From Bacteroidales bacterium (GTDB lineage Bacteria > Bacteroidota > Bacteroidia > Bacteroidales > WRLA01): a stretch of DNA of 64,000 nucleotides. The DNA is taken from positions 1,282,497-1,346,496 of the forward strand of contig OY781097.1 in the NCBI GenBank assembly GCA_963676415.1, written 5' to 3'. The translations under genes were made by a program, and so were the position numbers. How positions within the stretch are numbered: the stretch's first letter is position 1; every line of letters starts with the position of its first letter. Positions 9,018-45,658 of this stretch are shown here, piece after piece. The notes under the pieces were generated by a model. The model was not told the origin of the DNA, did not search any database, and worked only from the letters and a program-made list of their open reading frames with translations.

Positions 9018-9417
9018 GGGTTCAAACTTCTATTGGTTATGAATTTTCAAAAGTAATATAATTTCTGATATTGATAAATGATTAGCTTGAAAAAAAATAA
9101 TATTAAACTTTAACTAATGCTCTAATTATTCAGTCAAATCTTATATCAAGGAAGATATATTTAAATAGATGAATATTAAATATAGCCGTTGAATTGTGGA
9201 ATAATTTGTTTCATTCAGTTTCTCCCAAAATAATCATACTACTATCAATCTATAACACAAAAATAATCGTAATATTATCAAGTTATTGCTTAAAATCAGA
9301 TATAAAAATTAAATTAATAAGAAATGAAGACTTTAACAAAAAGCTTGTGCCAGAACAGCAGCAGTTTTGTTCTAAAAACTAAACTATTGTTATAATTTAA
9401 AATACAAGATGATCCGA

Positions 9418-30643: not shown

Positions 30644-32278
30644 TCAATCATGAAAAATCAACAAAGGGTCAGGCTTACTATGCTCCACAGCCTGGGTGGT
30701 ATCCGAATTCTTGCAGCCCTGCACATCCGTTACTTCCACAATTACTCTCAGCGTGGTATCCGCATAAAAGCTGGTATCCGTTGAGCCGTTTTGCCAGAGA
30801 TAGGATTGAAAATCCCCCGGCCAGAGGTCAACTCCGTAGCCTTCGCAAAAGCCTGTGTCTGTAGGCAAAAGTGGTGTGGGCAGGGGATGGATGAGAATTT
30901 CCTGCACGGTGGTGTCGTTCAAGCTGTTATTATAGCCAATTACACTGACCTGATAAGCTCCGGTATCTTCATAAACATGAAAGGGGAAAAAGGAATCCGA
31001 ATAATTGGCCGCACCACTGGCCGGATCGCCAAAATCCCAGAAAACAGAATCCTGGGAGGCAGTATCAGTAATGGCAAAGAAGGTGGTGTCCCCAATACAA
31101 TGGCCTTCCCAGCTGAAATTGGCGGGGTTGAAGAAGGATTGGATGAAGGCGGGGAGGCCTGACCTTGCTACATGTTGACCAGAACCGTCATCCAGAAATA
31201 CAGCAGAATCAATAAAAACACAGTCTGAACCTGTTTTATTCGGATATTCAATAATGCTTAAATAAGGATAATAACCTCTACTAATATAAATTCGATTATC
31301 CGGGCCAATTTGCATGGCTGCAAAAATATGATTAGAGCCTGATACACTGATTACAGAGCCTGAATTTATGACAGCTAATGAATCATAGGAGCTTAAGTCG
31401 TACTGTATTATTTTTGTGCTATTCGAGTAATCACAAAATCCTTGATATATCTTTTTTTCATTTGGTGAGAACTCAATGCCATAAGCATCATAGTTTTGGA
31501 AAGAAGGAAATGTTATAGGGTTAGACAAAAGAGCTGATTCATTATCGAATTTAAAGATTTGAAATGATTCGTCATTACATACGGCACAACATAAGTAATG
31601 ACCTTGCATAGACGCCTTCATATAACCGGTAATAGAACCAGTTGCGCCATGATGCCTTAAGCCGATGCTGCATGATACCGGTATTGTATGTATGGAATCC
31701 TGATCAACAAGATAGGAAATAAAGGTATTGGTGTTCCACAAATGACTAACCACCCAAAAAGATACTCCATCTGCATGTTGCACAGAAGTAACCATCTCGT
31801 GAACAGGGCCTGCTAAATAATGATTTACCGTTTCGGCTACCGCGCCCCTGCCTGAATCAAGTGCCATATTTACAATGGAATAGCGTAAGCCATTTTCTTC
31901 TGCCCGCCTGGCAACAGTAAACACATAAAACAAACTGTCATTTCCCGGCCAGGGCACAATAATTGCCGACATTGATGAGGAAGGATGCCCAGCAAGGTTA
32001 CTTCCATTGATCATAATATTATGCTCCCTGTTCCATATCTTTGAACCTTCCGTATAGAACAGGAGGTTGCCAGCTGTATCGGATATGCTCGCACAGCCTT
32101 CTTCCTGATAGATTTGCCCGTCAAACACTGCCTGAGGACTGCCATCGGGTGTGTTGAAAGTTATACCTGCATTATTACCAAAATACCAATTGTTGGCCTG
32201 TTTGTTCTGGGCATACAAAACACCTGTCCAAAAAAATGAACTTACAATAAGCAACAACAGGTGTTTCCGGCATAACAT
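30644..32278 (-). CDS. Secreted beta-propeller plus PKD-domain protein (no visible sorting domain)
   Basis: QANNWYFGNNAGITF, EGCASISDTAGNLLFYT, YGIEFSPN, MQIGPDNRIYI, GLPAFIQSFF and PKD WDFGDPASG motifs. Confidence 0.8.
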   Translation of the reverse strand: MLCRKHLLLLIVSSFFWTGVLYAQNKQANNWYFGNNAGITFNTPDGSPQAVFDGQIYQEEGCASISDTAGNLLFYTEGSKIWNREHNIMINGSNLAGHPSSSMSAIIVPWPGNDSLFYVFTVARRAEENGLRYSIVNMALDSGRGAVAETVNHYLAGPVHEMVTSVQHADGVSFWVVSHLWNTNTFISYLVDQDSIHTIPVSCSIGLRHHGATGSITGYMKASMQGHYLCCAVCNDESFQIFKFDNESALLSNPITFPSFQNYDAYGIEFSPNEKKIYQGFCDYSNSTKIIQYDLSSYDSLAVINSGSVISVSGSNHIFAAMQIGPDNRIYISRGYYPYLSIIEYPNKTGSDCVFIDSAVFLDDGSGQHVARSGLPAFIQSFFNPANFSWEGHCIGDTTFFAITDTASQDSVFWDFGDPASGAANYSDSFFPFHVYEDTGAYQVSVIGYNNSLNDTTVQEILIHPLPTPLLPTDTGFCEGYGVDLWPGDFQSYLWQNGSTDTSFYADTTLRVIVEVTDVQGCKNSDTTQAVEHSKPDPLLIFHD

Positions 32279-32329
32279 AATACAAAATTAGGGCTTTATT
32301 CGTATAAAACGTAAAGCCACGACAAAACT

Positions 32330-32770
32330 TTATTGTTTAATAATTTTCCACTCTCGCCGCAAACTACCCGATTTAATGCGCAGCAGGTAAATGCCTGCAG
32401 GTTGATCGCTCAGGTCAATTTGCTGGCGGTTTTCTGTGGATTTGATGCGTTGAAGCAGGCTGCCGCTAAGGGTATAAACCTCAAATTGCGGCAGTACATC
32501 ATTTTCAAACCCCTGGCTTTCCAATATAAGCAAGCCTTGTGTTGGGTTTGGATAAATTTTAACGGTAGCTTCTCCAAGCGTTTCCTGCAAAGGTTTGGGC
32601 AGCTCAGACTCCCCTTGCAAGCTGTCGTTGAAGTTGGCTGTGGCCTCCAGGTCCTTGCCCAAATCTACGATACGGGCGGTGCGGTTGCCGTTTTCGTCGT
32701 ATTGGTAGGTGGTTTGGGCGAAAGAATAATAGCTACAAAGCAATAGTCCTATTAAGTATATAATTCTCAT
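32330..32770 (-). CDS. Small T9SS type A sorting-domain protein with a single YD-like motif
   Basis: Signal peptide; TTYQYDENGNRTAR; IYPNPTQG...GIYLLRI...EWKIIKQ. Confidence 0.85.
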   Translation of the reverse strand: MRIIYLIGLLLCSYYSFAQTTYQYDENGNRTARIVDLGKDLEATANFNDSLQGESELPKPLQETLGEATVKIYPNPTQGLLILESQGFENDVLPQFEVYTLSGSLLQRIKSTENRQQIDLSDQPAGIYLLRIKSGSLRREWKIIKQ

Positions 32771-32776
32771 GATAAA

Positions 32777-33262
32777 TTATTTAGGGTAACTAAATTTATA
32801 ATTGTCGGTTTTGATTTTATGAAACAGGCCAAATGGGTTTATAACTAGGCCAACGTTATATAAACTCGTTTTTGAATCTAACTTGCCAACTTCAATTGGT
32901 TTATTATTTATTTCCCATATGTACCATCTGTCTGATATCTCTTTTTTCACAAAACCATAATCCTCAGTATGTCTAAACATGATTTTTTCATCCCGATCTA
33001 ATATTGCTCCTTTGCCGGCTGGATCCCACAATTTATGGAATAATCCGCCCCTAATCATTGTATGTGCGTAAAAATCAATATCATCTGAAGTTATTTCACT
33101 CGTAACTGGATTATACTTTATTTCATAGCTTCGCTTAAATACTGCTACAACTTGGCTATTTAATTGTGTTGTGTCTTTCGTAATATATTGAAAGTATCTC
33201 TTATTGTTGGAGTTGAGTTTTACTTCAAACACCCCCCCTGGTTTAATTAATATTCGTTTCAT
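32777..33262 (-). CDS. Putative immunity protein (Imm26-like)
   Basis: KPGGVFEVKL...KRYFQYI...QLNSQVVAVF pattern; AT-rich; located in the RHS locus. Confidence 0.55.
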   Translation of the reverse strand: MKRILIKPGGVFEVKLNSNNKRYFQYITKDTTQLNSQVVAVFKRSYEIKYNPVTSEITSDDIDFYAHTMIRGGLFHKLWDPAGKGAILDRDEKIMFRHTEDYGFVKKEISDRWYIWEINNKPIEVGKLDSKTSLYNVGLVINPFGLFHKIKTDNYKFSYPK

Positions 33263-33372
33263 AAGCTATCATTGCCTTATTATTAAACATGAAATTCTTC
33301 AATATTTTGTCGTCTTTAAAAGCATCTTCAGGCGACCAATCAAGACTACTATCAGCCGAATCAACACTAAAA

Positions 33373-33525
33373 TCATAACTCACCTAACAGTCTATGATTG
33401 GCCGGTATTTTAATGGCTCCGATTCGAAAGGACATATCGAAAAAATCTTCCTGTGCTGTGAGAATCTGCACACAGCTAAGCAGAAAGAGCAATGCGATCA
33501 GGTATATATTTTTTATAAACAGCAT
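33373..33525 (-). pseudogene. 50-aa signal-peptide stub, probable 5' remnant of a secreted protein gene
   Basis: Hand translation MLFIKNIYLIALLFLLSCVQILTAQEDFFDMSFRIGAIKIPANHRLLGEL; ATG is 15 nt after the upstream stop. Confidence 0.45.
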
Positions 33526-33540
33526 TTTATTAAACCAAAG

Positions 33541-33894
33541 TTATTCAAAAATCAAATAGCTGGTATCTTTATCGGCAACAAGTATAATTGTGTCACTGTT
33601 TTTCCTTTTTTTTACAAAAAAAGGCAAAGGGTACCTAGATACCTCGGCTAAATTTTCATTTTTATCAATACAAGAAATACATCCAGAGCACAATATAATG
33701 GAATCATTCAAAACCCATTGTCCTCGATTATAATACGATTTTGTTATTTTAATATTTATTGCATCGTTTTTTGAAATCTCCAGTAATTTTTCATCTGATC
33801 TGCTTAAAACAAACCTGTCTATTACAATTATTAAGGCAAATGCACAGATTGTTACCAGAGAGTATTTTACACTAAATTTATTATTTAACTTCAT
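33541..33894 (-). CDS. Putative cognate immunity protein (single N-terminal TM)
   Basis: Directly downstream of the RHS toxin; very AT-rich; N-terminal hydrophobic anchor. Confidence 0.55.
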   Translation of the reverse strand: MKLNNKFSVKYSLVTICAFALIIVIDRFVLSRSDEKLLEISKNDAINIKITKSYYNRGQWVLNDSIILCSGCISCIDKNENLAEVSRYPLPFFVKKRKNSDTIILVADKDTSYLIFE

Positions 33895-33906
33895 TGTTTA
33901 AATTCA

Positions 33907-35358
33907 TTATTTTCTCATATCGCTTATTATCTTATGAATATCCTTTGGATTTTTACCAGTCACACCATAATTAACATTAAAAAACCCAATAGGGCTTACT
34001 CCAATCCCTACACCAAACCCGTAGCCAACCACATATTCGTTATCCCTCATAGGGGCATAAACAGCAGTAATACCTAAAGCTAGTATGTTTGCAAAACCAA
34101 CATTCATCTCAAACCTAGGTCCAGTAAACACCTCCGGCGTTAATTTCTTTAAAGGACCCGAATAGTATAAATCCATTAATTCTGCAGTAAGAGTAACTTC
34201 TAATCCTCCAACACCAACTGATACATCTGTGAGAGGAACTGTTTCCCCGGCATGTTTTCCTTGCAAAATTTTAACACCACCTGCTTCTACCCCAACATTT
34301 AATCCCGCTGAACCGTTGGCTGAAATTGTACCTGCCACTGCGTCACCTGATATTAAATGCCTAGTTCTTCCTGTTATGGACGCCATCATTAATCCCCGCC
34401 CAAAAAATCCAGCATGAATTCCATGATTTAGCCCTGCACTAATTGCTCCGTTTCTTGCTCCATCCCAAAATTTGCCACCAGCAATTTCAGCACCAACACC
34501 TCTGGCTAAGGCACCACTTGCAGTAGTTCCAAAGGCCTGTGTAAATTTGTTTTCAGTACCAGACAATAAGCTGCCAGTCCCTGTTGCGGCAAGAGAGCCA
34601 AATGCTCCTGACAAAAATCCAGAAGAGAAATCGCCTCCGCTAGCATCAGACATAAGCCCCCCTAATGTTCCATGCGATAAAGTTTGAAAAGCAACTCTCC
34701 CAAATCCTGTTATTTGATTAGCTAATTGGCCTATTCCAAAGGACAAGCCTCCTCCGATACCACCAAGAAGGGCGGACTTAAATGCACCATCAAAGAACGA
34801 TTTATTATTGGCAAGGTTTGAAATGCCATTTGTTGTTATGCCAATGGCTGCACCTATAAGCATGGGTATTATAAACTCCCCACTCGGATCCGAATACTTC
34901 AAAGGGTTATTCAAACAGTAGGCATAGCGGTTCAGGTTCTGTGGCATATCCGGAGCTTGCACATAAGGATCAGGGCTCAGGAAAGCGCCCACAAGGGGAT
35001 CATAAGCCCTGCCGTTCATATTGATCAGATCAAAAGCATCGATATGCTCATGTCCGGTATAGCCACGGCTGGTTATATAATCGGCAGGGTCGGAGAAGAG
35101 CGGTGCCGTAAGGCTGCCGTCATAGGCTTGCAGCTCGCGGCGTTCGCCCCAGGCATTAAAGCTGTAATAGAGTGCATCATCCGTGCTTTGGGCACCATCA
35201 TCCACCAAAGCGTATATAGTCCCCAGGTAATCGGTGAGCACATACTTCATTTCATCGCGGCCGTCATCATCACTGATGTGCATTGCCACCAGCGCGTCGG
35301 GTGAAGAAATGTAGGAAAGGTAATGGGTTTCGCTGCCCCTTTGTATGCGTTCTACCAT
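33907..35358 (-). CDS. N-terminally truncated RHS repeat-associated core protein with a Gly-rich C-terminal toxin region
   Basis: TDYLGT, YSFNAWG, RGYTGHEH, LINMNGRAYDP and NRYAYCLNNPLKYSDPSG motifs; in-frame TAG 14 codons upstream of the ATG. Confidence 0.88.
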   Translation of the reverse strand: MVERIQRGSETHYLSYISSPDALVAMHISDDDGRDEMKYVLTDYLGTIYALVDDGAQSTDDALYYSFNAWGERRELQAYDGSLTAPLFSDPADYITSRGYTGHEHIDAFDLINMNGRAYDPLVGAFLSPDPYVQAPDMPQNLNRYAYCLNNPLKYSDPSGEFIIPMLIGAAIGITTNGISNLANNKSFFDGAFKSALLGGIGGGLSFGIGQLANQITGFGRVAFQTLSHGTLGGLMSDASGGDFSSGFLSGAFGSLAATGTGSLLSGTENKFTQAFGTTASGALARGVGAEIAGGKFWDGARNGAISAGLNHGIHAGFFGRGLMMASITGRTRHLISGDAVAGTISANGSAGLNVGVEAGGVKILQGKHAGETVPLTDVSVGVGGLEVTLTAELMDLYYSGPLKKLTPEVFTGPRFEMNVGFANILALGITAVYAPMRDNEYVVGYGFGVGIGVSPIGFFNVNYGVTGKNPKDIHKIISDMRK

Positions 35359-35558
35359 ACCGCCAAAGATAGTTTTATTTTTTATTTGTGATGAATACTA
35401 TTTGTGATTATTTATCGGATAGCCCTGATATTTATTAAATTTTGATATTGAAGCCAGTAATACATGATGAATTTAATTTTGAAATAATTTTTGAATATAC
35501 TTTTATGCTAAGATGTTTTTTTAACTTTGCATTTTCTAATCAAAGTCTTTATTCAATT

Positions 35559-37555
35559 ATGAAAACCAATATTCTTGCAATTATTTTAGTAGCATTGATA
35601 ACATTTGGGTCAAAAGCCCAAACCGTATTTTTAGAAGACTTCAACGAAAGTTCAATTTTCCCGGAAGGGTGGGAACTTAAAGCCATTCCAGAGGATGAGA
35701 ATGTAGTGGATTATAGTTTAGTTGGATCAAGCTGGTGCTTAGATGAGGGCAGGGAATTCAGGCTATTCTTTAACCATTTTTTAAACGGGGAAAGGCGCCG
35801 AGCAGTAGGATGGAATTAATTTCACCACAATTAGACATGTCAGATTTTGACCAATTGAATTTTTCTATGGATTTCTATCGTCTGGAGTTTGACCTTTTGG
35901 CTGGAGAATGGCGTATATATTTGTATGCCAATAATAACCAAATGGATGATTGGGTGAAAATCTATACACATGATTATACCAGGGGTACGGGTTGGATGGA
36001 ATTTAAAAGGAGTGTTCCTTTTATTTGCTCTCTTGATTCAAGTATTTTCCGCCGGGAAGGATTCCAGTTTATGTTTATGTTAGATGAGAACATTGGACCA
36101 CTCAGTAACGGTAACCATTGGTTCAATATTGATAATATTAAAATCGAAGTACCGCAACAGATAGATTTGGCTCTTTTTGATCGTTATCCGGATCAGCATA
36201 TAGCTAATGACAGCCTTTATATTCCTAAAGCACGCATAATAAATAAAGGTATTGATCTGGCGGGAGGAAAAGTGCATTGTACTATCAGGGAGCATCTCAG
36301 TAATGAGCTGGTTTATGAAGAAACTATAGATGTTCAGGAAATGGCGCGTATGGATACCTTAAGTTTGGATTTTCCTGGTTTTTATTTACCCTATACAAAC
36401 CATTTATTCCATCTTGACTTTGACCTGGAATGTGAGGGGGATATTGTGTTGGATAATAATAATGTCAGCTTTAACATAGATACTTACGCGGCCCCGTTCC
36501 ATAACTGGATTGGATTGAACCTGTTTTACTCTACAGAATATAGCCTGGGTATTTGTGAAAGAGATTGTTATAGGCAATTACTCAGAAATTTGGATACACT
36601 GGATCAAATAAAACAGTTATTACCAAAGGCCAGTATTGTTAATTATGTATATGATGATGTGCCAGACTCGTTAAGTTGTCAGACGACAGTCTCTTTTATG
36701 ACCGACCTTGGGATTGCCTATGCCCCCTCAGTATTAATTCCAATGACGGAAGAAGCTTATATTCCCAGGTTTAGCCTTTACCCACGACGGGTTTTTAGGT
36801 CTTTTGAGTATGCATGGGAGTTTGGCGACTTAGATTTGTTTAATTATTATAAGCAAATAGCAGATTACCGGTCCCCCTTTACACTGGATATCTACGGCAC
36901 CCATACAGGTCTGGATTATAGTGTCATGGTAGAACTCACACCCAAAGCCCCGATCGTAAATGACCGCTTAAAGCTGCGCACTGTAATCACCCGCTCCCAT
37001 GTGCCGTCTAATGCCAATCCGGAAATACCAGACCAATACCGTGTCGAGTATTTCGACGATGCAGTCCAAATGGCCCTGCCCGATACCAACGGCATTGCCT
37101 TTGCCATGGACGGATCGGAGACCAGCGCCAAGCAATGGGAAATGTCTTTCAGTTTAAAGGATTTCTGGGATCCGGAGCAGGTGAAGATCGTAACTTATGT
37201 GCAGGATACATTCACCTACGACATCCTGCAATGCCGTGCTGTGCCCCTGCAAAACCTTTGGGGCGTGGGCATGGAAGAAGAAGCGCAAACGCCTGCAGAA
37301 AGCGTCCTTATCAGTCCCAATCCGGCAAAAGACATGCTTTATGCGCAGCTCATGCTGGAAATGCCGGCCAATGTGGATTTCCGCCTCTTCGATATCAATG
37401 GCCGCGACCTGGGCATCCTGAAAAGAAGCTTCCTGGGTGCTGGAAACCACAAAGTACAGATCAACATACCGGAGCACATAAAAACAGGCATCTACATCCT
37501 GCAAACCGAAACAGATCGTGAGCTTTATTCGCAGAAACTGAATATTGTGCGCTAA
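35559..37555 (+). pseudogene. Frameshift-split secreted protein (adhesin-like N-domain, Omp28-like region, T9SS type A sorting domain)
   Basis: ORF1 (signal peptide, FLEDFN...FPEGW) stops at 35819. The -1 frame is open from 35774 (SSRMELISPQLDMS) to ISPNPAKD...GIYIL...KLNIVR. Confidence 0.75.
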
Positions 37556-37827: not shown

Positions 37828-39030
37828 ATGCAATATCTGGAAGAGATTCAAAAATATGTGGAGCTGCTGTACCGGCAATCCGAAACAAAAGATTTTAAGC
37901 TGCATAATTTGCAGCGCACCCGCGAAATTGTACATTATGCCGGTTTGCTGGGGCAGCGCAACGGGCTGTCGAAAGAGGATATGCTGAACCTGGAGATTTG
38001 TGCCTGGTTCAGCGAAACGGGTTTTTTGCGTGACTACCGCAGGAATGAGGAAAAATCCATGGAGCTTATGTCGGAATATCTTGCCGAAACCGATATGGAC
38101 CCGCAGCGGATTGAAGTCCTGAAACAGGCCATTGCTGCTACCCGCATTCCACACAGTCCCAAAAACCTGATGGAAGAAAGCCTCTGTGATGCCATCACTT
38201 ACGAGCTGGGCAGTGAAGGTTTTGAGGAAAAACTGGATTTGTACCGCGAAGAAGTCAACCGCCTGTGGAATACAGAAATGGAGGCACTCGATTTTTATGA
38301 TGTAATCCTGGGCATCCTGAATTCTCATAAATATTTTACTTCGGCGGCAAAAGAGCTTTTCGATGAAAACCTGAACAATAACCGTAAGATCATCCGCAAA
38401 CGAATAAAAAAGAAAGCCCGGAAGCTGGAAGAAAAACTGGATGACCAAAACGAAAAGGTAAAGAAGCTAAATAAGAAATACGAAGAAATGAAAGCGCCGG
38501 CACGGGGCATCGAAACCATGTTCAAGGTTACTTCGCGCAATCAGATTACCTTAAGCCAGATTGCTGATAATAAGGCAAATATCCTGATTACGGTTTGTTC
38601 GATCATTCTCTCTGTCATGGTGACCATGGTGATCCGTAAAATCAACGAATATCCGCATATGGCTTTGCCTTCGCTGGGCCTGATCCTGACCAGTCTGGTT
38701 ACCATTATTTTTGCCATTTTGGCCACACGTCCCAAGGTTTCGCAGGGAACTTTTACCAAAGAGGATATCCGCGAGAAACGCACCAACCTTTTGTTTTTCG
38801 GTAATTTCTATAAAATGTCGTTCAAAGATTACGAATGGGGCGTGCGCGAAATGATGCGCGATTATGATGGCTTATACCATAATATGATTCTGGATCAATA
38901 TACGCTGGGTGTGGTGCTGGCACGCAAATACCGATTGCTGCGCAAGGCTTTTAATATTTTTATGTTTGGCCTCAGCGGTTCTATTCTGATGGTGATTTTG
39001 ATTGAAATTTTCAGGGATTATACGGTTTAA
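37828..39030 (+). CDS. Degenerate HD domain fused to a Pycsar-effector-like (DUF5706) membrane domain
   Basis: C-terminal RGIETMFKVTSRNQITLSQIADNKANILITV, ILATRP, NLLFFGNF and LGVVLARKYRLLRKAFNIFMFG with 3 TM segments; N-terminal HD-like scaffold. Confidence 0.82.
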   Translation: MQYLEEIQKYVELLYRQSETKDFKLHNLQRTREIVHYAGLLGQRNGLSKEDMLNLEICAWFSETGFLRDYRRNEEKSMELMSEYLAETDMDPQRIEVLKQAIAATRIPHSPKNLMEESLCDAITYELGSEGFEEKLDLYREEVNRLWNTEMEALDFYDVILGILNSHKYFTSAAKELFDENLNNNRKIIRKRIKKKARKLEEKLDDQNEKVKKLNKKYEEMKAPARGIETMFKVTSRNQITLSQIADNKANILITVCSIILSVMVTMVIRKINEYPHMALPSLGLILTSLVTIIFAILATRPKVSQGTFTKEDIREKRTNLLFFGNFYKMSFKDYEWGVREMMRDYDGLYHNMILDQYTLGVVLARKYRLLRKAFNIFMFGLSGSILMVILIEIFRDYTV

Positions 39031-39860
39031 AACTGATAAATCATCGATAAGCCCATACCGGTGGATGCGGGCACGAAACCTATTTTGCTGTCTTTATTCC
39101 TTTTGATGCGGTGCAGTTCGGGGATCAGGATTCCACAGAGCGCGCCCACTGCTGTTCCGGTGATGATGTCGGTAGGAAAATGCTTGCCTGCCTGATAGCG
39201 GAATATCCCGGTGATGGCCGGAGGCACCAGTGCAGCGGCATAAACCAGCAGTTTTTTACCGTCACTGAATTCGGGATGGTAATCACAAAATACTTTTGCC
39301 GTGAAGAAAGAGCTTGTTGCCGTGGTGGATGTATGTCCGCTGAAAAACGAATCGGTTGTTCCGCCTCCGGTTTTTTTGCCAATGGGCACATCGGGATTAT
39401 AGATATAGGGCCGGATGCGGTTGGTGAAGCGTGGGCCGCCCCAGGTATATAAATTGGCGTTGATGGCATGTGTTTCCAGATAAAGCAGGAGCAAATCGGG
39501 CCAGTCGTGGCGGATTTTTTCATCAAACATGAGCAGGGCTGGCAGCAAAATGGAAATTTGCATCGTCCTGTCACTAATAACTTGGGCGTCACCACTATAC
39601 GGATCGTGATAGGTGGCGCCGCGATCAAAGGCCCAGATGTCCATGCGGTCGAGCCCCATGATTTCTTCTTCGCTTAAAGAAGGTTTTTCGCGCAAAGAAA
39701 TCAACCCCAGAAAATTGGAAATATAGCCCGCAGCTGTTATGGGAATATCCCATTTATAATTCATTTTGTAAACACTGCTGTCTTGTTTTTGTGCTTTCAG
39801 CGATGCGCTCAAAATTAACGCACACAGCAAAAGCATCATTTTGCTTTTTCGTTTGTTCAT
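39027..39860 (-). CDS. PAP2 family phosphatase with signal peptide
   Basis: RIRPY, SFFSGHTS and RYQAGKHFPTD motifs (PAP2 C1-C3). Confidence 0.88.
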   Translation of the reverse strand: MNKRKSKMMLLLCALILSASLKAQKQDSSVYKMNYKWDIPITAAGYISNFLGLISLREKPSLSEEEIMGLDRMDIWAFDRGATYHDPYSGDAQVISDRTMQISILLPALLMFDEKIRHDWPDLLLLYLETHAINANLYTWGGPRFTNRIRPYIYNPDVPIGKKTGGGTTDSFFSGHTSTTATSSFFTAKVFCDYHPEFSDGKKLLVYAAALVPPAITGIFRYQAGKHFPTDIITGTAVGALCGILIPELHRIKRNKDSKIGFVPASTGMGLSMIYQF

Positions 39861-39897
39861 GTTTTACCTGTCCTTTTTTCAGCGGCTCAATGCTGAA

Positions 39898-42800
39898 TTA
39901 ATACTGGAAGCTAAATTTCAGAGAAAATATATCCGCCTCCGAAGAATGTTCATATACTGCGTTTATAGCCAGGAATTTATAGGGTGCTGCCCAAATCCCT
40001 CCGCCATATCCATGATGCCATTGATCCGATTTTTCATCTGCATACCAAACCCTGCCACAATCATAAAATCCTAAAATCCCAACATCTCCGTTGAGCAAAT
40101 AATTGTGCAAACGGAAAATCCGTACGCGTAATTCCGTATTTTGGTACAGAGCTTCATCTCCGGTAAAACGGTTGCCCCTGTACCCGCGCAAATTGGTGTT
40201 TCCGCCCAAAGCAGATGCAAAATAAAAAGGATAGTCTCCAAAAGTTTTGGAATATCCGGCGCGCAAAGCCAAAACCGTTCCCGGATCGCGGTGAAAGCTT
40301 ATATAATAGCGCGCATCGGCCTGCAGGCGACTGAAATAATTGCCTGCCGTAAAATTGCGGAACAGATCATAGTTCAGCTTTGCAAACAATCCCCTTGATG
40401 GCAAAACATCATTATTTCGCTTGTCTATTTTGCCTTCGAGTGCCAAACCAACAAAATGATTTCGTGTGAACCACTGCTTCCAATAAGGTGGGAGCAAATC
40501 GGGGTCCAGAATGCGTTTTTTGTTCTTTTCTACTTCAACCGTAAGGTATTGCGGCCCAAAACTCAAATTGTACTCTTTACCGAAATTTAATCGCAAAGCC
40601 GGACGCACCGAAGCCATTTCATAGCGAACACGATAAAAATCTTTATCCGAACTGTCATTTGTAGTTTCGTTTCCAAAACCATAGAAATTATTCACGTATT
40701 CGGGTACGGATAAATCAGCTTTTATCAGGAAATCCAGTTGCCCGACCTTATTGGAAAAGGCCGCTTTGTAGTGGATGTTATATGCTCCTGTGGCCAAAGC
40801 CGCGCTGGCCGTGATGCTTTGCGCGCTGCTGTCGCGCCAGTTGAAATTGCGGAAAAGCGCACCGCCTCCGATAAAAACCCCATCATCAGGATTATAACCA
40901 CCATTGACCAAAGGCATAACCACATCGTACTCATACAACAGCCGGTCGTATTTATTAATGCCTTTTCGATTGCTCAGGCGGTCAGAAGTTTCCCTTCCTG
41001 CATGTAAAAGCGTGTTTTTCTTTTTGTCGTAAACACGCGTTTTGCGGCATAAACCGCCAACATGGCTTGAATCTGTGATCACATCATCTCCTTTGCCTCC
41101 AATAATACGCACCAGTGGGCTTTTCTTCACATTTCCGCGCACAATAAATTCATCGTCTCCTTTGCGTCCGTAGAGGTTGATTTCTTTGGTTGTTTTATTT
41201 TCAAAAGTGCGGTCGTAGAGCGTATTCTTTTTCCTTCCTTTTTTATCGCTGAGCGCGATGACCTCAACCCGTGTGCTGTCGTCACTGATGCGGTCCACGA
41301 TAAAAAGCTCGCGCCTTTTGGTTCCGGGAATATCCACTTCGCGGGAGAGGAATTCGTAATACTCTTCAAAATATTCGGGGAGATGCTCGCGGCGGGCTTT
41401 CATCTTTGTGATTAATTCTTCACCTCTCGATGCATCAATGGATGCCGGCAGTGAATTTTTCACTGAATTTTCAATCAGGCTGTCGGTAAGGCAGGCGATA
41501 AATTCCCTGGCTGTTTTTTCCCAAAGGTTTCGGTCGGCTTCATTCAGGAAGCTACGGTCGAAATGACGTGCATTGTATTCCAGCCCGGCAATATCGCGGA
41601 TTGTAGCATCAAATCCCTGGAATTTCGGCAGCATCCATTTGCGTGACGCGACCCACAGCAAGGGCCCCTGTCCTTTAAAAAATGCGTTGTCGCGATCGCG
41701 TGGCACCGGTTTGTAGGTGGTGAAACCATCCCCTTCAAAAACCGACCAGCGCCATTGGTCGTCGTGCCGGTCCCAGTCGCCTATAAAAATATCGAGCATA
41801 CGCGAGCGCAGCACCTGTTGCTGATCAATGCGGCTTTTGTGTTTTTCGCTGGTTTTTTTCAAAACTTTTGAAGTGCTTTCCATGTCCTCGGGACGGCCAA
41901 AACCTGCTACATCTGTCCTGTTGCCTGCCGGACGTTCTTCAAAAAGGAAGAGTTTGTTTTTCATTTCATTGCGGTAAATGCCCAAAGCAGGATCATCGGG
42001 CATATACACATAGCGCGGATTGGTATGATAAACGCCCGTGGCTTCTGCCAATGGCGGCACAACCAGAGCGCCGTAAGGGAAGGAAGCGGAAATCATGTCC
42101 TGAAGGACATCCTGAGCTACAGTTCCTGCAAATTCTTCGGTCATTACTTTGTCCACCGATTTATCTACCGAGCGCAAAACATATTGCCGTCCGTCCGGAG
42201 CCTGCAAGCGGTAGGAGCTGGTCTGGAAACCGCCGCCTCTCTGAAGGATCACCAGGCCGTCTTTTTCTTTCAGGATGTCGAAATACGCGAATGTGTCGGG
42301 CAAAGCCCATTCTTTGCGGTAATTGTCGCCCAGCCAGAAACGGTGCCATCCACCGGCTTCATATTCTTTTCCCGCCGGGCAAACAGCGGTGCTGTCGGTA
42401 TAATCGTAATTGCGGTGCGTATCCGGAAGGGCTTGAAAATCAGGTGCAGGAATAAGGAGGGTTTCTTTTTGATTGTCTGGATTTTCTGTTTTGATAATCA
42501 AATTGATGCTGCCATTTTTTTGAATATCGAGCAGGACAAAACCGGCATCCGGACTGGAAAAGCGTTTTTCTTTATCCACAGAAGCATTTATTGCCGGAGC
42601 ACCGTTTAGGCTTCCGCTTTGCACCTGAGCGAGATTCCTTGTATCAAATTCCAGCATATGGTCGTGCCCGGAAATATAAGCGGTTTGTTTGCTTTTTGAG
42701 AGGAAATCCATGAAACGTTTGCGGAAATCACGGTATTCGGGATGCGCCAAATCCTGCGGTTCGCCTAAGCTTGCGCGATAACCGGTGTACAAAAATCCCG

Positions 42801-43530
42801 GCAGGGGGACCCAAAGGGATTTATTGGCCAGCCGCAAGGGGAACAGTTGTGCATAAAGCGGAAAACCACCGCCATGAATGCCCCGGCTTTGCAGTGGGTG
42901 ATGCCCGAAAATCAGCACATTGCGGTGCGGATTGCGGGCAATGATATCGTGCAGGGCAGAGAGGATGTTGTTTTCCACTTCATTGGGCGCCCCGGTTTCC
43001 GATTTGATGTAGGGACATTCGTTGGAAACATCCGTTTTTCGTTCGCCATGCAGCCACCACTGAGTATCCAGAAAAACGAGCATGGTATTAGTGCCAAAAG
43101 GGATTTCATAAGGCCCCGGACAAGATCCTTCGGGCACAATGCGGGCTTCGGGGAAGTGTTCGGCAAGAAGCCCGGAAAATTCGTCCAGATTGTCAAAACC
43201 ATTGTGATGGCCTTTGAGCCAGTTCATTTCATCGGGTAAAATCAAGACCTCACCGGCAAAATTTTGAGCAATTTCTTTTAATTCTCTGATCCGTAGAAGC
43301 GATTTTTCATAGCAGGATGTTTTGTCTTCATCATAAGCGCAGGCAGGGAGAAAATCGCCGGTAATGACCCATGCGGAAGTTTCAGGCATAGAAGAAAGTT
43401 GTTTTTTCAGCTTATACACCATGCTTTTGTTGTCGAAATCACCATCGCTGACCAATATCTGCCGCGAACCCTGTGCCATCAAAAGGCACGGAAATATGAT
43501 TAGTGCAAGAAAGATTAAAATCCGCTTCAT
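39898..43530 (-). CDS. Metallophosphoesterase-like, kinase-like and Omp85/BamA beta-barrel fusion
   Basis: Signal peptide; TGD, LDTQWW, GHHP and SGHDH; central GGGFQT...DWDRHDDQW...RDRD; C-terminal LRGY loop-6 motif and terminal FSFQY. Confidence 0.85.
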   Translation of the reverse strand: MKRILIFLALIIFPCLLMAQGSRQILVSDGDFDNKSMVYKLKKQLSSMPETSAWVITGDFLPACAYDEDKTSCYEKSLLRIRELKEIAQNFAGEVLILPDEMNWLKGHHNGFDNLDEFSGLLAEHFPEARIVPEGSCPGPYEIPFGTNTMLVFLDTQWWLHGERKTDVSNECPYIKSETGAPNEVENNILSALHDIIARNPHRNVLIFGHHPLQSRGIHGGGFPLYAQLFPLRLANKSLWVPLPGFLYTGYRASLGEPQDLAHPEYRDFRKRFMDFLSKSKQTAYISGHDHMLEFDTRNLAQVQSGSLNGAPAINASVDKEKRFSSPDAGFVLLDIQKNGSINLIIKTENPDNQKETLLIPAPDFQALPDTHRNYDYTDSTAVCPAGKEYEAGGWHRFWLGDNYRKEWALPDTFAYFDILKEKDGLVILQRGGGFQTSSYRLQAPDGRQYVLRSVDKSVDKVMTEEFAGTVAQDVLQDMISASFPYGALVVPPLAEATGVYHTNPRYVYMPDDPALGIYRNEMKNKLFLFEERPAGNRTDVAGFGRPEDMESTSKVLKKTSEKHKSRIDQQQVLRSRMLDIFIGDWDRHDDQWRWSVFEGDGFTTYKPVPRDRDNAFFKGQGPLLWVASRKWMLPKFQGFDATIRDIAGLEYNARHFDRSFLNEADRNLWEKTAREFIACLTDSLIENSVKNSLPASIDASRGEELITKMKARREHLPEYFEEYYEFLSREVDIPGTKRRELFIVDRISDDSTRVEVIALSDKKGRKKNTLYDRTFENKTTKEINLYGRKGDDEFIVRGNVKKSPLVRIIGGKGDDVITDSSHVGGLCRKTRVYDKKKNTLLHAGRETSDRLSNRKGINKYDRLLYEYDVVMPLVNGGYNPDDGVFIGGGALFRNFNWRDSSAQSITASAALATGAYNIHYKAAFSNKVGQLDFLIKADLSVPEYVNNFYGFGNETTNDSSDKDFYRVRYEMASVRPALRLNFGKEYNLSFGPQYLTVEVEKNKKRILDPDLLPPYWKQWFTRNHFVGLALEGKIDKRNNDVLPSRGLFAKLNYDLFRNFTAGNYFSRLQADARYYISFHRDPGTVLALRAGYSKTFGDYPFYFASALGGNTNLRGYRGNRFTGDEALYQNTELRVRIFRLHNYLLNGDVGILGFYDCGRVWYADEKSDQWHHGYGGGIWAAPYKFLAINAVYEHSSEADIFSLKFSFQY

Positions 43531-43552
43531 CTGTATTTTCTTTGATAGGATG

Positions 43553-44497
43553 CTAATCACTTAGATAATTAAAAATCAATATACTGGCAACGCGACTATT
43601 GGCCTCATTGGAAATATACAATTTGCCTTCACGGTCAAAACAGATGCCTTCGGCCTGCTGGAAACTGTCTTTTGATAGTTTTACGAACTTTTTGATCCTG
43701 CCTACACGGTCTATGATCAGGATTCCGTAGCTGTTGGCAGAAAGCAAGTAAATATCCTGTGTAAAAGGATGAACGGCAATACCGGAGGGTTGAAAACGTA
43801 TATCGCCCGATTCATGCAGAAAGGAGGCAATTTGAACGGAAATCCGGTCGAAAAAACTCTCATTTTCTTCATTTTGCACTGAATCGAGATGGATTTTCAT
43901 AAAGGGTTCTTTGATCAGCTTTTCTTTTACGAGGTCATAACGGTACACCGAACGGACATCGGCCCCCTCATCTCCGGGTTCCAGCCCGCCATAGGCTTTG
44001 CAGGCTATTAAAAGGCTGTGCGTTAATGGATCGTAGCATAAACCTTCTGTATCATTATATGAACTCAGCTTTGTTTTATGCTTTTTGGAGTCCACATCCT
44101 CCTTTTTGTCTTTTTTCTTTTTTTTCAGTTCATCAATTTCAAATATAGTTCCATCGCTGCGCAGGACAAAGAAATGACCGCCGGCTATTGTTATGTCCTC
44201 ATAATCGTCATTTTTACCAAAATCATATTTTGTTTTGATTTCACCGTGCATATTCAGTTTGTAGATATGGGCTTTTTCATCCTGAATGGCGTAAATATGA
44301 TCGTCATGCACTGCGATACCGCTGATTTCTTCCAGTTCATCATCGAGCAAAATAATATTGGCAGGATTGGAAATATCGTATGGAAAGAGGAGGGAATTTT
44401 GCGCATTGATTTGGCTGAAAACAAAGCACATAAAGAGCAACAGCAGGGGGAGAAAAAATTTATTCAGGCGGAAAAAAAGTTTCATATCAGGCGCCAT
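43553..44497 (-). CDS. SdiA-regulated (YjiK-like) beta-propeller protein
   Basis: LEEISGI, IQDEKA, DYEDI, DTEGLCYD, FQPSGIAVHP and QAEGICFD...YISNE motifs; signal peptide. Confidence 0.8.
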   Translation of the reverse strand: MAPDMKLFFRLNKFFLPLLLLFMCFVFSQINAQNSLLFPYDISNPANIILLDDELEEISGIAVHDDHIYAIQDEKAHIYKLNMHGEIKTKYDFGKNDDYEDITIAGGHFFVLRSDGTIFEIDELKKKKKDKKEDVDSKKHKTKLSSYNDTEGLCYDPLTHSLLIACKAYGGLEPGDEGADVRSVYRYDLVKEKLIKEPFMKIHLDSVQNEENESFFDRISVQIASFLHESGDIRFQPSGIAVHPFTQDIYLLSANSYGILIIDRVGRIKKFVKLSKDSFQQAEGICFDREGKLYISNEANSRVASILIFNYLSD

Positions 44498-45629
44498 TTT
44501 GCTTTAAAGATATATTTTTTTTTGGGCTTAATGCGGCTAAAGCCTGGCTGCCCGGAATGCCCCGGAGCTTTATATTGCCCTGAGGATGAACATCGAATTC
44601 TTTCAGCGGGTGTTTTTCGGTGAGCTTGAGGGTGGTCATTAAAGGAAATCCAAGATGTTTGGCTTCCTCCATCATCCGTGATGTAAGGTTGAGTACCTGC
44701 CCGTGGTATGCAATTTCAATTTTTACTTCCCCACCCACTTCGGCCACAGTAACATAGCCCTGACCCACTGCGCCCGTAAAGGAAGGTTCAATACCGTATT
44801 TCGCCCAAAATTGCCCGTAACCGCCAGAGAGGGATTCGCTGAAATCAAAAAACAAACGTACGGCATCTTTATAAGCTTCTTTTCGCTTTTTCCTTATACG
44901 CCAAGTGATTACAACTTCATCGCCAACAAACTGGTATATTTCTCCATCATATTTTTCAACAAAACCGGCCAGCATTTTATAGCATTCCTGAATCATTTTG
45001 CTGTAGCGCACATGTCCCAGCTTGGCATTGGTCAGTGTACTGTTGTCCAGATCCATAAACAGGAATACACGTTCTTCTTCTCTTGGCCTGTAATAGCGTC
45101 CGGTAAGCATGGCAAAAAACTGTGCATGGCCGAATTTCCGGCTCATCAGGCGCAGAAAGTTGCCCGAAAGCGTGATGATCAAACCCCAAAGGAAAAAATA
45201 GTAGAAAAGGGATGAATGGATGTATTCGGCAATTTGTTGCGGATATTCCGATATTGGAACTTCATCATGAAAAATAAGCACATAAAAAAAGAGCGCCATA
45301 ATAGAGACAAAAAACATCGTGGCTACAAAAACCAGTGTTTTGATAAAAAGCACACGGCGCAGGCTTTTGTTGCGGAACCAGCGCGGAAAAAGATAAAGCT
45401 CAACCATACCAACAAGTACGCCAATGATCAGCCCCGCGATGGTGGCAAAATACATATTGTCGCGCAGCAATACCATGGCCTTGTCTTCAAAAAAGGATTT
45501 TGATTCTTCATGCAGGCTCAGATAGCGTAGAAAAATAATAATACGCAGGGAGAAAACCCACCATAAAATCAGGAAAATATATTCCCTTAGGCGTATTTTA
45601 TTTGATATGTTATGTTTACACTTTCGCAT
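44487..45629 (-). CDS. Membrane-anchored class III adenylate/guanylate cyclase-family protein
   Basis: 4 N-terminal TM segments; FLFMDLDNST, YQFVGDE and IAYHGQVLNLTSR motifs. Confidence 0.9.
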   Translation of the reverse strand: MRKCKHNISNKIRLREYIFLILWWVFSLRIIIFLRYLSLHEESKSFFEDKAMVLLRDNMYFATIAGLIIGVLVGMVELYLFPRWFRNKSLRRVLFIKTLVFVATMFFVSIMALFFYVLIFHDEVPISEYPQQIAEYIHSSLFYYFFLWGLIITLSGNFLRLMSRKFGHAQFFAMLTGRYYRPREEERVFLFMDLDNSTLTNAKLGHVRYSKMIQECYKMLAGFVEKYDGEIYQFVGDEVVITWRIRKKRKEAYKDAVRLFFDFSESLSGGYGQFWAKYGIEPSFTGAVGQGYVTVAEVGGEVKIEIAYHGQVLNLTSRMMEEAKHLGFPLMTTLKLTEKHPLKEFDVHPQGNIKLRGIPGSQALAALSPKKNISLKQNGA

Positions 45630-45650
45630 TGCAGCTTCCAGGCTTTAGGA

Positions 45651-45658
45651 CAAAGATA
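45651..45658 (-). promoter_or_regulatory. Bacteroidota -7 promoter box for the cyclase operon
   Basis: TATCTTTG on the minus strand, 21 nt upstream of the cyclase ATG. Confidence 0.55.

Follow-up and report, generated by a model that had tools for sequence, protein, structure and literature searches.

To our knowledge, PycTM-type proteins, whose membrane part has three transmembrane helices (3TM), are known solely as suicide effectors in phage defence. A preprint places PycTM in the 'pJV1-spdB3' family of 3TM proteins and describes EcPucTM, a protein of the PycTM family, as a hexamer with a central channel of ~15 Å (10.64898/2026.08.12.744502). Among Omp85 outer-membrane proteins, PlpD is described as having an enzyme domain that sits in the periplasm (PMC11116518). 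The locus analysed here brings a PycTM-type module together with an Omp85 fusion protein. It lies in a stretch of 64,000 nucleotides (hereafter the window) from a Bacteroidales bacterium (GenBank assembly GCA_963676415.1, contig OY781097.1, positions 1,282,497 to 1,346,496; source genome G000, with congeners G001–G004) and consists of five genes. The one on the plus strand (37828–39030; 400-aa open reading frame) encodes P0001, in which a degenerate HD domain precedes the 3TM module (HD-PycTM, here called the HD-3TM protein). The four on the minus strand encode a class III cyclase (P0003, 44487–45629, 380 aa), a β-propeller of the YjiK/SdiA-regulated type (P0004, 43553–44497, 314 aa), the Omp85 fusion protein, which carries a degenerate metallophosphoesterase and a kinase-like domain (P0002, 39898–43560), and a PAP2 phosphatase (P0005, 39027–39860, 277 aa).

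We give about an even chance to the reading that this locus is a housekeeping module of the cell envelope, concerned with phosphate or polyphosphate, controlled by a cyclic nucleoside monophosphate (cNMP) and related to Pycsar effectors; the module would be conserved in Bacteroidota and Ignavibacteria, the copy here being a local, rearranged and partly pseudo-enzymatic one. In a major phylum, a PycTM-type module would then be what looks like a housekeeping gene, inherited widely and with ties both to polyphosphate kinase and to an outer-membrane enzyme that has not been described. A preliminary description of the window had proposed that the locus joins a cNMP writer to a membrane protein of the PycTM type, next to phosphate enzymes of the envelope; this pairing is supported by the co-conservation of the genes and by domain fusions.

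Conservation of the gene set

The HD-3TM gene was used as the anchor for a gene-neighbourhood analysis. At least 600 stretches matched the search pattern, at least 579 of them encoding a relative, and the best 80 loci were kept with flanks of 10 kb; they come from many genera of Cytophagales, Chitinophagales, Sphingobacteriales, Bacteroidales, Flavobacteriaceae, Ignavibacteria and Kapaibacteria. Neighbours were counted within 10 kb by clustering all open reading frames and by tblastn, several of the 80 loci being short contigs. Beside the anchor we found the Omp85 fusion at 62/80 loci, the propeller at 53/80 by tblastn (51/80 by clusters) and the polyphosphate kinase gene ppk1, recognised by four PPK Pfam domains (E values down to 3e-70), at 42/80. 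Further neighbours were a 791-aa GAF-domain protein (25/80), the PAP2 phosphatase (19/80, in three sub-clusters whose representatives were checked), a cyclase of ~350–460 aa (17/80) and a SixA-like histidine phosphatase (11/80). Sixteen of the 17 neighbouring cyclases have 3–5 N-terminal hydrophobic segments, and the remaining one has a REC domain. One or more of the Omp85 fusion, the propeller and ppk1 accompanied the anchor at 76/80 loci, none of the seven neighbour families was seen at 3/80, and all five families of the window occurred within 10 kb at 4/80. The frequent linkage to ppk1 lends weight to an alternative raised in the preliminary description, an undescribed phosphate-sensing system, in so far as it points to a phosphate-related system.

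These genes recur in several orders (> and < give the direction of transcription). Loci of the Pedobacter and Mucilaginibacter type read HD-3TM>PPK1>Prop>Omp85f>GAF protein; L045, L063 and L074 read Prop>Omp85f>HD-3TM>PPK1>Cyc>PAP2, all co-directional, as does L066, in which PAP2 was not detected. The order is Cyc>Prop>Omp85f>HD-3TM at L022, L035, L090 and L091, and Cytophagales types show Omp85f<Prop<HD-3TM>, followed by PPK1< or Cyc<. At five loci (L011, L012, L017, L065 and L070) HD-3TM and the cyclase are convergent, with 3' ends overlapping by 3–12 nt; elsewhere among the relatives, either the propeller with the Omp85 fusion or ppk1 stands between the cyclase and HD-3TM. The linkage outlasts repeated gene re-ordering, which is a classic sign of functional coupling. 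The possibility that the genes are chance neighbours was rejected on account of their co-conservation in several gene orders, and the expected co-conservation of the five families in related genomes was borne out across orders.

We also surveyed a sample of 401 genomes of the order. The cyclase family was found in 24 of them, HD-3TM in 23, with four more matches limited to the HD part, and the Omp85 fusion in 19. HD-3TM and the Omp85 fusion occurred together in 12 genomes, in 10 of which they lay on one contig within 10 kb. HD-3TM and the cyclase occurred together in 10 genomes, compared with ~1.4 expected if they were independent. Such excesses are overstated and only indicative, since the sample includes genomes that are related to one another. 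In G355 and G268 the genes are arranged as Cyc>Prop>Omp85f>HD-3TM on one strand, and in G370 as Cyc>Omp85f(short)>HD-3TM with PAP2 convergent.

Three further neighbours were seen. The GAF protein, of ~790 aa with GAF as its sole recognised domain, usually follows the Omp85 fusion (L040 13546–15921; L116 6143–8416), and no homologue of it was found in G000. A 622-aa protein with a pyruvate-kinase barrel domain adjoins HD-3TM at four Bacteroidales loci (L035 11172–13040; L022, L091, L094). In G018, which belongs to another family of the order, a 996-aa secreted propeller of the FG-GAP/PQQ type and a YjiK-like propeller fragment come before a cyclase homologue (L005 1445–5833); the HD-3TM gene of this genome lies on another short contig, and the match contains one in-frame TAA.

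The cyclase and the HD-3TM protein

P0003 matches Guanylate_cyc (PF00211, E 9.2e-6, 25.8 bits) and has 3–4 hydrophobic segments within its first 180 residues, in agreement with its earlier description as a class III cyclase with four transmembrane helices (4-TM). When aligned with CyaB and bPAC, it contains the two metal-binding Asp and the transition-state Asn and Arg of class III cyclases; in an alignment of its family, D193 and D237 are kept in 148/148 members, R318 in 148/148 and N314 in 137/148. Judged from these residues, P0003 is probably active. Purine specificity in such cyclases is given by a pair of residues, Lys with Asp/Thr for ATP and Glu with Cys for GTP. In P0003, Gln233 occupies the position of the adenine-specifying Lys (Gln in 142/148 members) and Ala307 the second specificity (Asp/Thr) position (Ala in 121/148), and these departures from the canonical pairs leave the base of the product unreadable from the sequence. 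For pyrimidine cyclases other specificity residues have been given (PMC11224242), and those found in the accessible part of that paper do not map simply onto P0003. Its best PADLOC PycC match (residues 187–321, E 1.2e-7, 29.4 bits) is not above the level of the generic PF00211 match, and the protein cannot be called a PycC with confidence. Elsewhere the genome encodes a second multi-TM class III cyclase, a paralogue with 27–29% identity (G000:C1:4264442–4265362; locus L009 9356–10384).

Fusion proteins were also found. A 487-aa frame at L008 joins a cyclase domain (PF00211, E 1.6e-39) to an HD domain (E 6.8e-10) that resembles the HD domain of the HD-3TM protein (BLASTP E 1e-23), and similar frames of 460–497 aa are common in the order. 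At L119, a 356-aa frame joins a cyclase domain (PF00211, E 3.4e-9) to a PycTM module (PF18967, E 5.7e-33). Since the pairwise fusions cyclase-HD, HD-3TM and cyclase-3TM all exist, the cyclase and the membrane protein appear to be tied to each other, and the proposed cNMP link between them is supported by these fusions as well as by recurrent adjacency. The L119 fusion gene comes immediately after one that encodes a secreted CotH-like kinase (PF08757, E 1.5e-5; the two genes at 7983–10315), an echo of the kinase-like domain of the Omp85 fusion.

P0001 is composed of the degenerate HD domain (residues ~1–170), a long helical linker (172–222) and the PycTM-family 3-TM module (226–400). It matches PycTM PF18967 at residues 272–381 (E 9.3e-32) and PADLOC PycTM models at E 6.6e-18, 7.3e-12 and 1.8e-10. 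The preliminary description had staked its proposal on co-conservation and on a match of the effector domain to the Pycsar-effector hidden Markov model (HMM), and on both counts it held. An AlphaFold2 (AF2) model with a predicted local distance difference test (pLDDT) of 84.5 shows a helical HD fold, a 50-residue linker helix, two TM helices, an insert and a third TM helix. The insert is conserved and less confidently modelled, and bears an invariant NLLFFGNF motif; the periplasmic portion of the model is almost nil. A fold search with the model returned nothing at E <= 0.001, only HD folds being seen and the 3TM part having no match. The HD fold resembles 2pq7 (TM-score 0.73) and YpgQ and, weakly, the C-terminal domain of PPX (E ~0.5).

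The HD domain itself has no Pfam HD match, and the metal-binding signature H...HD...D of HD phosphohydrolases (PF01966) is absent: its sites read H-R-S-E-N-E-D-I-E, compared with H-H-H-D-H-E-D-D-H in 80/91 relatives. Among the proteins compared, only four copies, all from this genus, have the degenerate pattern. The label HD in the preliminary description stands by homology to relatives that have HD matches, and fails as a Pfam assignment of the window protein; sequence and model together indicate that the domain is homologous to the HD family and has the HD fold. More than 5,771 clusters among 8,000 scored candidates belong to the HD-3TM family. Two stand-alone paralogues of the HD subfamily, of 209 and 224 aa (G000:C1:533362–533907 and 497484–498023), have intact H..HD..D motifs and are possible trans-acting hydrolases.

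Several observations weigh against a cNMP-controlled module. A cyclase lies near only 17 of the 80 HD-3TM genes, and in the order sample the cyclase family accompanies HD-3TM in only 10 of 23 genomes; because the cyclase is present with a minority of HD-3TM genes, cNMP control is not universal for the module. A Pfam search found no recognised cNMP-binding domain in P0001. In the window, HD-3TM is convergent with the operon and is not co-transcribed with it, and in G001 it lies ~260 kb from the operon. The two ppk1 genes of the source genome are far from the locus (2.72 Mb, together with a SixA-like gene, and 3.99 Mb, compared with 1.32 Mb for the locus), and the catalytic motifs of both the HD domain and the metallophosphoesterase are lost in this genus.

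One alternative is an envelope module for phosphate or polyphosphate, made up of HD-3TM, the propeller and the Omp85 fusion together with ppk1 and PAP2, that works without cyclic nucleotides. The cyclase would then be found nearby only now and again and serve targets of its own, and the PycTM fold would simply be a membrane pore or transporter. The cyclase is missing at 63/80 loci and in 13/23 HD-3TM genomes of the order sample, ppk1 (42/80) is a commoner neighbour, P0001 is without a canonical cNMP-binding domain, and its HD fold is nearest to generic nucleotide/polyphosphate hydrolases (2pq7, YpgQ) and weakly to the PPX C-terminal domain, all of which would fit such a module. The cyclase-HD and cyclase-3TM fusions, however, occur within the same subfamilies, and in three or more gene orders, each particular to a lineage, 4-TM cyclases stand beside the module, with 3' overlaps at five loci. 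The co-occurrence of HD-3TM and cyclase (10 observed, ~1.4 expected) and the GAF protein, which is also a frequent neighbour, likewise speak for cyclic nucleotides, and we regard this alternative as rather unlikely.

The Omp85 fusion, the propeller and the PAP2 phosphatase

P0002 is 1220 aa long from its GTG and 1210 aa, the length in the preliminary description, from the ATG at codon 11 (43530, minus strand), which is the probable true start. A signal peptide is followed by the degenerate metallophosphoesterase-like domain (residues ~30–375; 42436–43473), the kinase-like domain (~380–740; 41341–42423), and a β-rich linker (~741–900) that leads into the Omp85 barrel region (~901–1220; 39901–41340 for the two), all on the minus strand. 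The barrel accounts for the Omp85 label, matching Pfam PF01103 at residues 927–1183 (E 1.2e-16); the match to NCBIfam Omp85_fam NF047779 (E 8.3e-27) is under the curated cut-off of that model. The fusion has relatives in at least 3,785 clusters, most of which go by the names 'BamA/TamA family outer membrane protein', 'calcineurin-like phosphoesterase' or 'hypothetical'. Short forms of ~850–925 aa lack the phosphoesterase, and some loci have separate phosphoesterase-only frames of ~365–390 aa.

The metallophosphoesterase motifs are conserved across an alignment of 36 full-length homologues of the fusion. Motif III is GNHD in 33/35 homologues and DEMN in the window protein (alignment A2), which has neither the calcineurin-like GNH(D/E) nor a PF00149 match. 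Most database relatives have both PF00149 and PF01103, and PF00149 is missing from the window protein and from P0247, which is 60% identical to it. The preliminary label 'phosphoesterase' is correct by homology to relatives that have the match, and does not extend to a Metallophos match in the window protein.

An AF2 model of residues 380–900, comprising the kinase-like domain and the β-rich segment, reached a pLDDT of 91.7 and a predicted TM-score (pTM) of 0.90, and the part of the β-rich segment ahead of the barrel (~741–860), in the place where a member of the Omp85 superfamily would have at least one POTRA domain, was modelled at high confidence. The best Foldseek matches of the kinase-like domain were CtkA (3akj, E 1e-5), PI4KII-alpha, CotH, HipA/HipT and Fam20C, with E values from 1e-5 to 4e-4. 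It had 26 PDB matches at E <= 0.001, and the top-ranked ones listed are all kinases. By sequence, a search of the PDB with the Omp85 fusion gave noise only, no Pfam family matched the kinase-like domain, and a profile of the domain gave a single weak PDB match, CtkA (E 0.23), which was later backed by the fold. The predicted structure of the domain is that of a bilobal kinase, including a catalytic loop and an Asp for metal binding. K88, E162, D216, D218-R219, Q223 and D243-R244-D245 (numbering of alignment A3) are invariant, the window protein included, which retains the candidate catalytic K, E, DWDRHDDQ and DRD. The earlier label 'kinase' for this middle domain is supported by the fold.

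Because the enzyme domain of PlpD is reported to be periplasmic (PMC11116518), a periplasmic enzyme tethered to the outer membrane is our default model, and by this analogy the enzyme domains of the Omp85 fusion are probably periplasmic. A complex prediction for the propeller with the kinase-like/linker region scored 0.01 (mark, 0.32).

The other two proteins agree with their preliminary assignments. P0004 matches the SdiA-regulated family (PF06977, E 4.6e-17; 62.5 bits, compared with a curated cut-off of 21), with weak NHL and phytase-like matches, and its signal-peptide-like N-terminus is consistent with a secreted YjiK-like propeller. PAP2 phosphatases carry the catalytic motifs SGH and HxxxD. 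P0005, which has FSGH and HFPTD, belongs to this integral-membrane phosphatase family (PF01569, E 1.2e-15) and has a signal-like N-terminus.

As the kinase-like domain sits on an Omp85 anchor behind a signal peptide, it would need a phosphoryl donor outside the cytoplasm. A possible answer is a trans-envelope phosphoryl supply, in which a nucleotide-gated HD-3TM conduit passes polyphosphate from PPK1, or nucleoside triphosphate, to the periplasm; the kinase-like domain would there phosphorylate a lipid or glycan of the envelope, from which the metallophosphoesterase, PAP2 and the propeller would remove the phosphate. Besides the position of the kinase-like domain and its candidate catalytic residues, this scheme draws on the ppk1 linkage at 42/80 loci, on the stand-alone CotH-like secreted kinase that adjoins the cyclase-3TM fusion, on the ~15 Å channel described for PucTM in the preprint (10.64898/2026.08.12.744502) and on the reported change in membrane lipids after deletion of plpD, the gene of an Omp85-tethered enzyme (PMC11116518). 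However, passage of nucleotides or polyphosphate through PycTM-family channels is without evidence and ppk1 is unlinked in this genome, and we consider the scheme distinctly unlikely. If it were true, Pycsar and Pucsar membrane effectors would be weaponised offshoots of a housekeeping channel.

Distribution across the phylum

A profile of the HD-3TM family matched 186/401 genomes of the phylum at E <= 1e-40. The matches covered 28/28, 7/7 and 10/12 genomes in some taxonomic families and 0/17 in others. A hand count of 150 of the matches listed gave full-length copies in at least 94 genomes and more than 50 3TM-only proteins of ~190–260 aa; there were 69 further matches beyond those counted. 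Ten of the 3TM-only loci were examined, and in five of them the Omp85 fusion lay within 10 kb, in three of these five together with the propeller.

The broad, vertical-looking distribution and the synteny with ppk1 argue against a defence island, and the pattern fits a vertically inherited physiological gene. Pycsar systems are distinguished by a sporadic, defence-island-like distribution and an adjacent two-gene cyclase-effector operon, as well as by a cCMP or cUMP product and protection from phage through abortive infection. Here the family is present in 186/401 genomes with ppk1 synteny at 42/80 loci, and in the window three genes lie between the cyclase and the convergent effector gene. 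The anti-phage, Pycsar-type role that the preliminary description had considered is disfavoured by this family-wide distribution.

A true anti-phage, Pycsar-like abortive-infection system that has acquired extra envelope genes would be in line with the PycTM HMM matches and the weak PycC matches (best E 1.2e-7), with the sparse occurrence of the family in this order (23–24/401 genomes), and with the congener G004, which was without the cyclase, HD-PycTM and Omp85-fusion genes searched for and gave no DNA match to the five-gene block. It is very improbable in our view: the family reaches 28/28 and 7/7 genomes in some families, synteny with ppk1 and other housekeeping genes is stable, the cyclase has a 4-TM domain, and the propeller, the Omp85 fusion and PAP2 have no PADLOC match. 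Moreover, the flanks of the window are without defence or mobile genes, and the synonymous divergence (dS) is the same for the cyclase as for the core genes that flank it.

The module in the source genus

G001–G003 contain all five genes with 93–100% amino-acid identity; in the more distant G004 no orthologue of the cyclase, HD-PycTM or the Omp85 fusion was found, nor any matching DNA of the five-gene block. The breakpoint that separates HD-PycTM from the operon in G001 is exactly at the gene junction (window ~39036–39039) and is flanked by short dispersed repeats with dozens of copies in G000. The junction of PAP2 and HD-3TM seems to be a hotspot (window ~39027–39040; L001 14740–15400; L002 9880–10500; L003 13754–14200), and in G002 it carries an insertion of ~450 bp with a 200-bp dispersed repeat present in at least 11 copies in G000. 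Because short dispersed repeats occupy the junction, the separation in G001 looks like a recent repeat-mediated rearrangement. As evidence against linkage it is weakened by the junction-exact breakpoint and the repeats.

The ratio of non-synonymous to synonymous divergence (dN/dS) against the congeners was 0.02–0.14 for all five genes, which are under purifying selection. Both degenerations also occur in a lineage that is only 60–65% identical (P0007, P0247), whose cyclase, HD-3TM and Omp85-fusion genes are probably on one contig. With purifying selection, two hydrolase domains turned pseudo-enzymes and a PAP2 gene in the operon, the module here appears to be a maintained derived form. One could instead regard it as a decaying remnant with dead HD and metallophosphoesterase domains, whose genes no longer cooperate, seeing that two catalytic motifs are lost, that the HD-3TM gene is inverted and, in G001, relocated, and that the linkage to ppk1 is gone. 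A remnant of this kind is hard to reconcile with the low dN/dS of all five genes, with reading frames that are all intact in four species, with the same degenerate state in the 60–65%-identical lineage, and with an intact 3TM module and intact kinase-like residues, cyclase residues and PAP2 motifs; we judge it the least probable of the alternatives, with hardly any chance of being right.

The dS values against L001–L004 are uneven along the locus. The cyclase and the CNNM and Zn-peptidase genes of the right flank have values of 0.24–0.40, and DUF4268 has 0.11–0.38; HD-3TM, PAP2 and the Omp85 fusion have 0.01–0.17. The lower values in the left part suggest a recent interspecies exchange of that part of the locus.

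Layout of the locus

The coordinates of the reading frames confirm the four tightly coupled minus-strand genes of the preliminary description: the cyclase and the propeller overlap by 11 nt, the propeller and the Omp85 fusion by 8 nt, and a gap of 37 nt separates the Omp85 fusion from PAP2. The stop ends of the convergent PAP2 and HD-PycTM frames share 4 nt, as had been noted. The box TATCTTTG ahead of the cyclase is present at 45651–45658 (minus strand) and precedes the cyclase ATG by 22 nt; its promoter label comes from what we take to be the Bacteroidetes -7 consensus. Its motif class is weakly enriched in the window, TANNTTTG occurring 85 times compared with 69 ± 7.5 in shuffled sequences (2/100 shuffles reached 85), and TATCTTTG alone is weak evidence for a promoter. 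A scan of the window for sigma-70-type promoters and terminators gave sites not above the shuffle numbers.

A Pfam search of the window flanks found a Por_Secre_tail protein, DUF4268, a Zn-peptidase and a CNNM/CorC transporter, and no defence or mobile genes. In the left flank (31000–37500), a 483-aa frame without a Pfam match and a 581-aa Por_Secre_tail protein both belong to multi-copy families, and pieces of this region align to many places in G001 and G004 with 66–97% DNA identity.

Discussion

Co-conservation, domain fusions, folds and motif states are what the analysis shows, whereas the ligand, the gating, the placement of the Omp85 passenger and the role in phosphate or polyphosphate are inferred. 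The core of the module as we picture it would consist of an inner-membrane HD-3TM protein, a periplasmic YjiK-like propeller and an Omp85 protein with a metallophosphoesterase and a kinase-like domain tethered to it. Recurrent accessories would be ppk1, the PAP2 phosphatase, the 4-TM class III cyclase, the GAF protein and the SixA-like phosphatase. The 4-TM cyclase would make a cyclic mononucleotide, and the 3TM module, presumably gated by this ligand, would be a membrane receptor or channel for the signal, as in Pycsar and Pucsar effectors. Ancestrally, the HD domain may have been the phosphodiesterase that ends the signal; it would be dead in this genus, which has intact stand-alone paralogues. 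The output would be control of periplasmic or outer-membrane phosphate-ester or polyphosphate chemistry, not abortive infection. The signal might conceivably run from the outer membrane to the cytoplasm, as the preliminary description imagined.

Such a module would offer a testable origin story for a defence effector and a first functional context for thousands of proteins now named 'HD domain-containing', 'Pycsar effector family' or 'BamA/TamA family'. It also points to a periplasmic kinase-like enzyme, for which the phosphoryl donor becomes the question. The genus studied here provides a natural experiment, in which two catalytic domains died and the module stayed under selection.

Comparison with known systems

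Our literature searches found no published description of the module and no report that joins PycTM with an HD domain or Omp85 with a metallophosphatase; supplementary tables (Table S1 of 10.64898/2026.08.12.744502; PMC4104836) may list related proteins. The accessible part of the preprint makes no mention of an HD fusion or of an Omp85 or ppk1 context, and the words 'phosphatase', 'phosphoesterase' and 'calcineurin' are absent from the main text of the Omp85 subfamily survey (PMC4104836).

Like the PlpD-type ('type Vd') Omp85 proteins, the fusion has an N-terminal enzyme region followed by a C-terminal Omp85 barrel, but its passenger is a metallophosphoesterase with a kinase-like domain whereas that of PlpD is a patatin lipase. 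The kinase-like domain has the same predicted fold as the atypical kinases CtkA, PI4K type II, HipA, CotH and Fam20C (Foldseek probability 1.00, E 1e-5 to 1e-4; TM-score to target 0.33–0.50), and it has a DxDRHxDQ motif resembling a catalytic loop and a DRD motif. With CotH and Fam20C it would share a location outside the cytoplasm. It differs from all of these kinases in its low identity to them (10–13%), in its fusion to an Omp85 barrel and in having no Pfam family.

In c-di-GMP (cyclic di-GMP) signalling, LapD is a receptor with an inactive EAL domain. Here, too, selection preserves a phosphodiesterase-type domain that is catalytically dead, as part of an inner-membrane protein whose locus also encodes partners in the periplasm and outer membrane; the fold is HD instead of EAL, and the class of nucleotide differs. 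LapD-like sequestration of a periplasmic partner is unlikely, because the modelled HD-3TM protein is almost without a periplasmic portion.

Compared with Pycsar and Pucsar, the window cyclase has an N-terminal 4-TM domain and weak similarity to PycC, an HD domain is joined to the 3TM module, and the cyclase and membrane protein are embedded among the propeller, the Omp85 fusion, PAP2 and ppk1. The distribution of HD-3TM is family-wide and not sporadic, and the window has no adjacent two-gene operon. On the other hand, P0001 bears a 3TM module of the PycTM family, which is genetically linked to a class III cyclase and, in relatives, fused to one. The logic of a cNMP acting on a membrane oligomer is likely to be shared.

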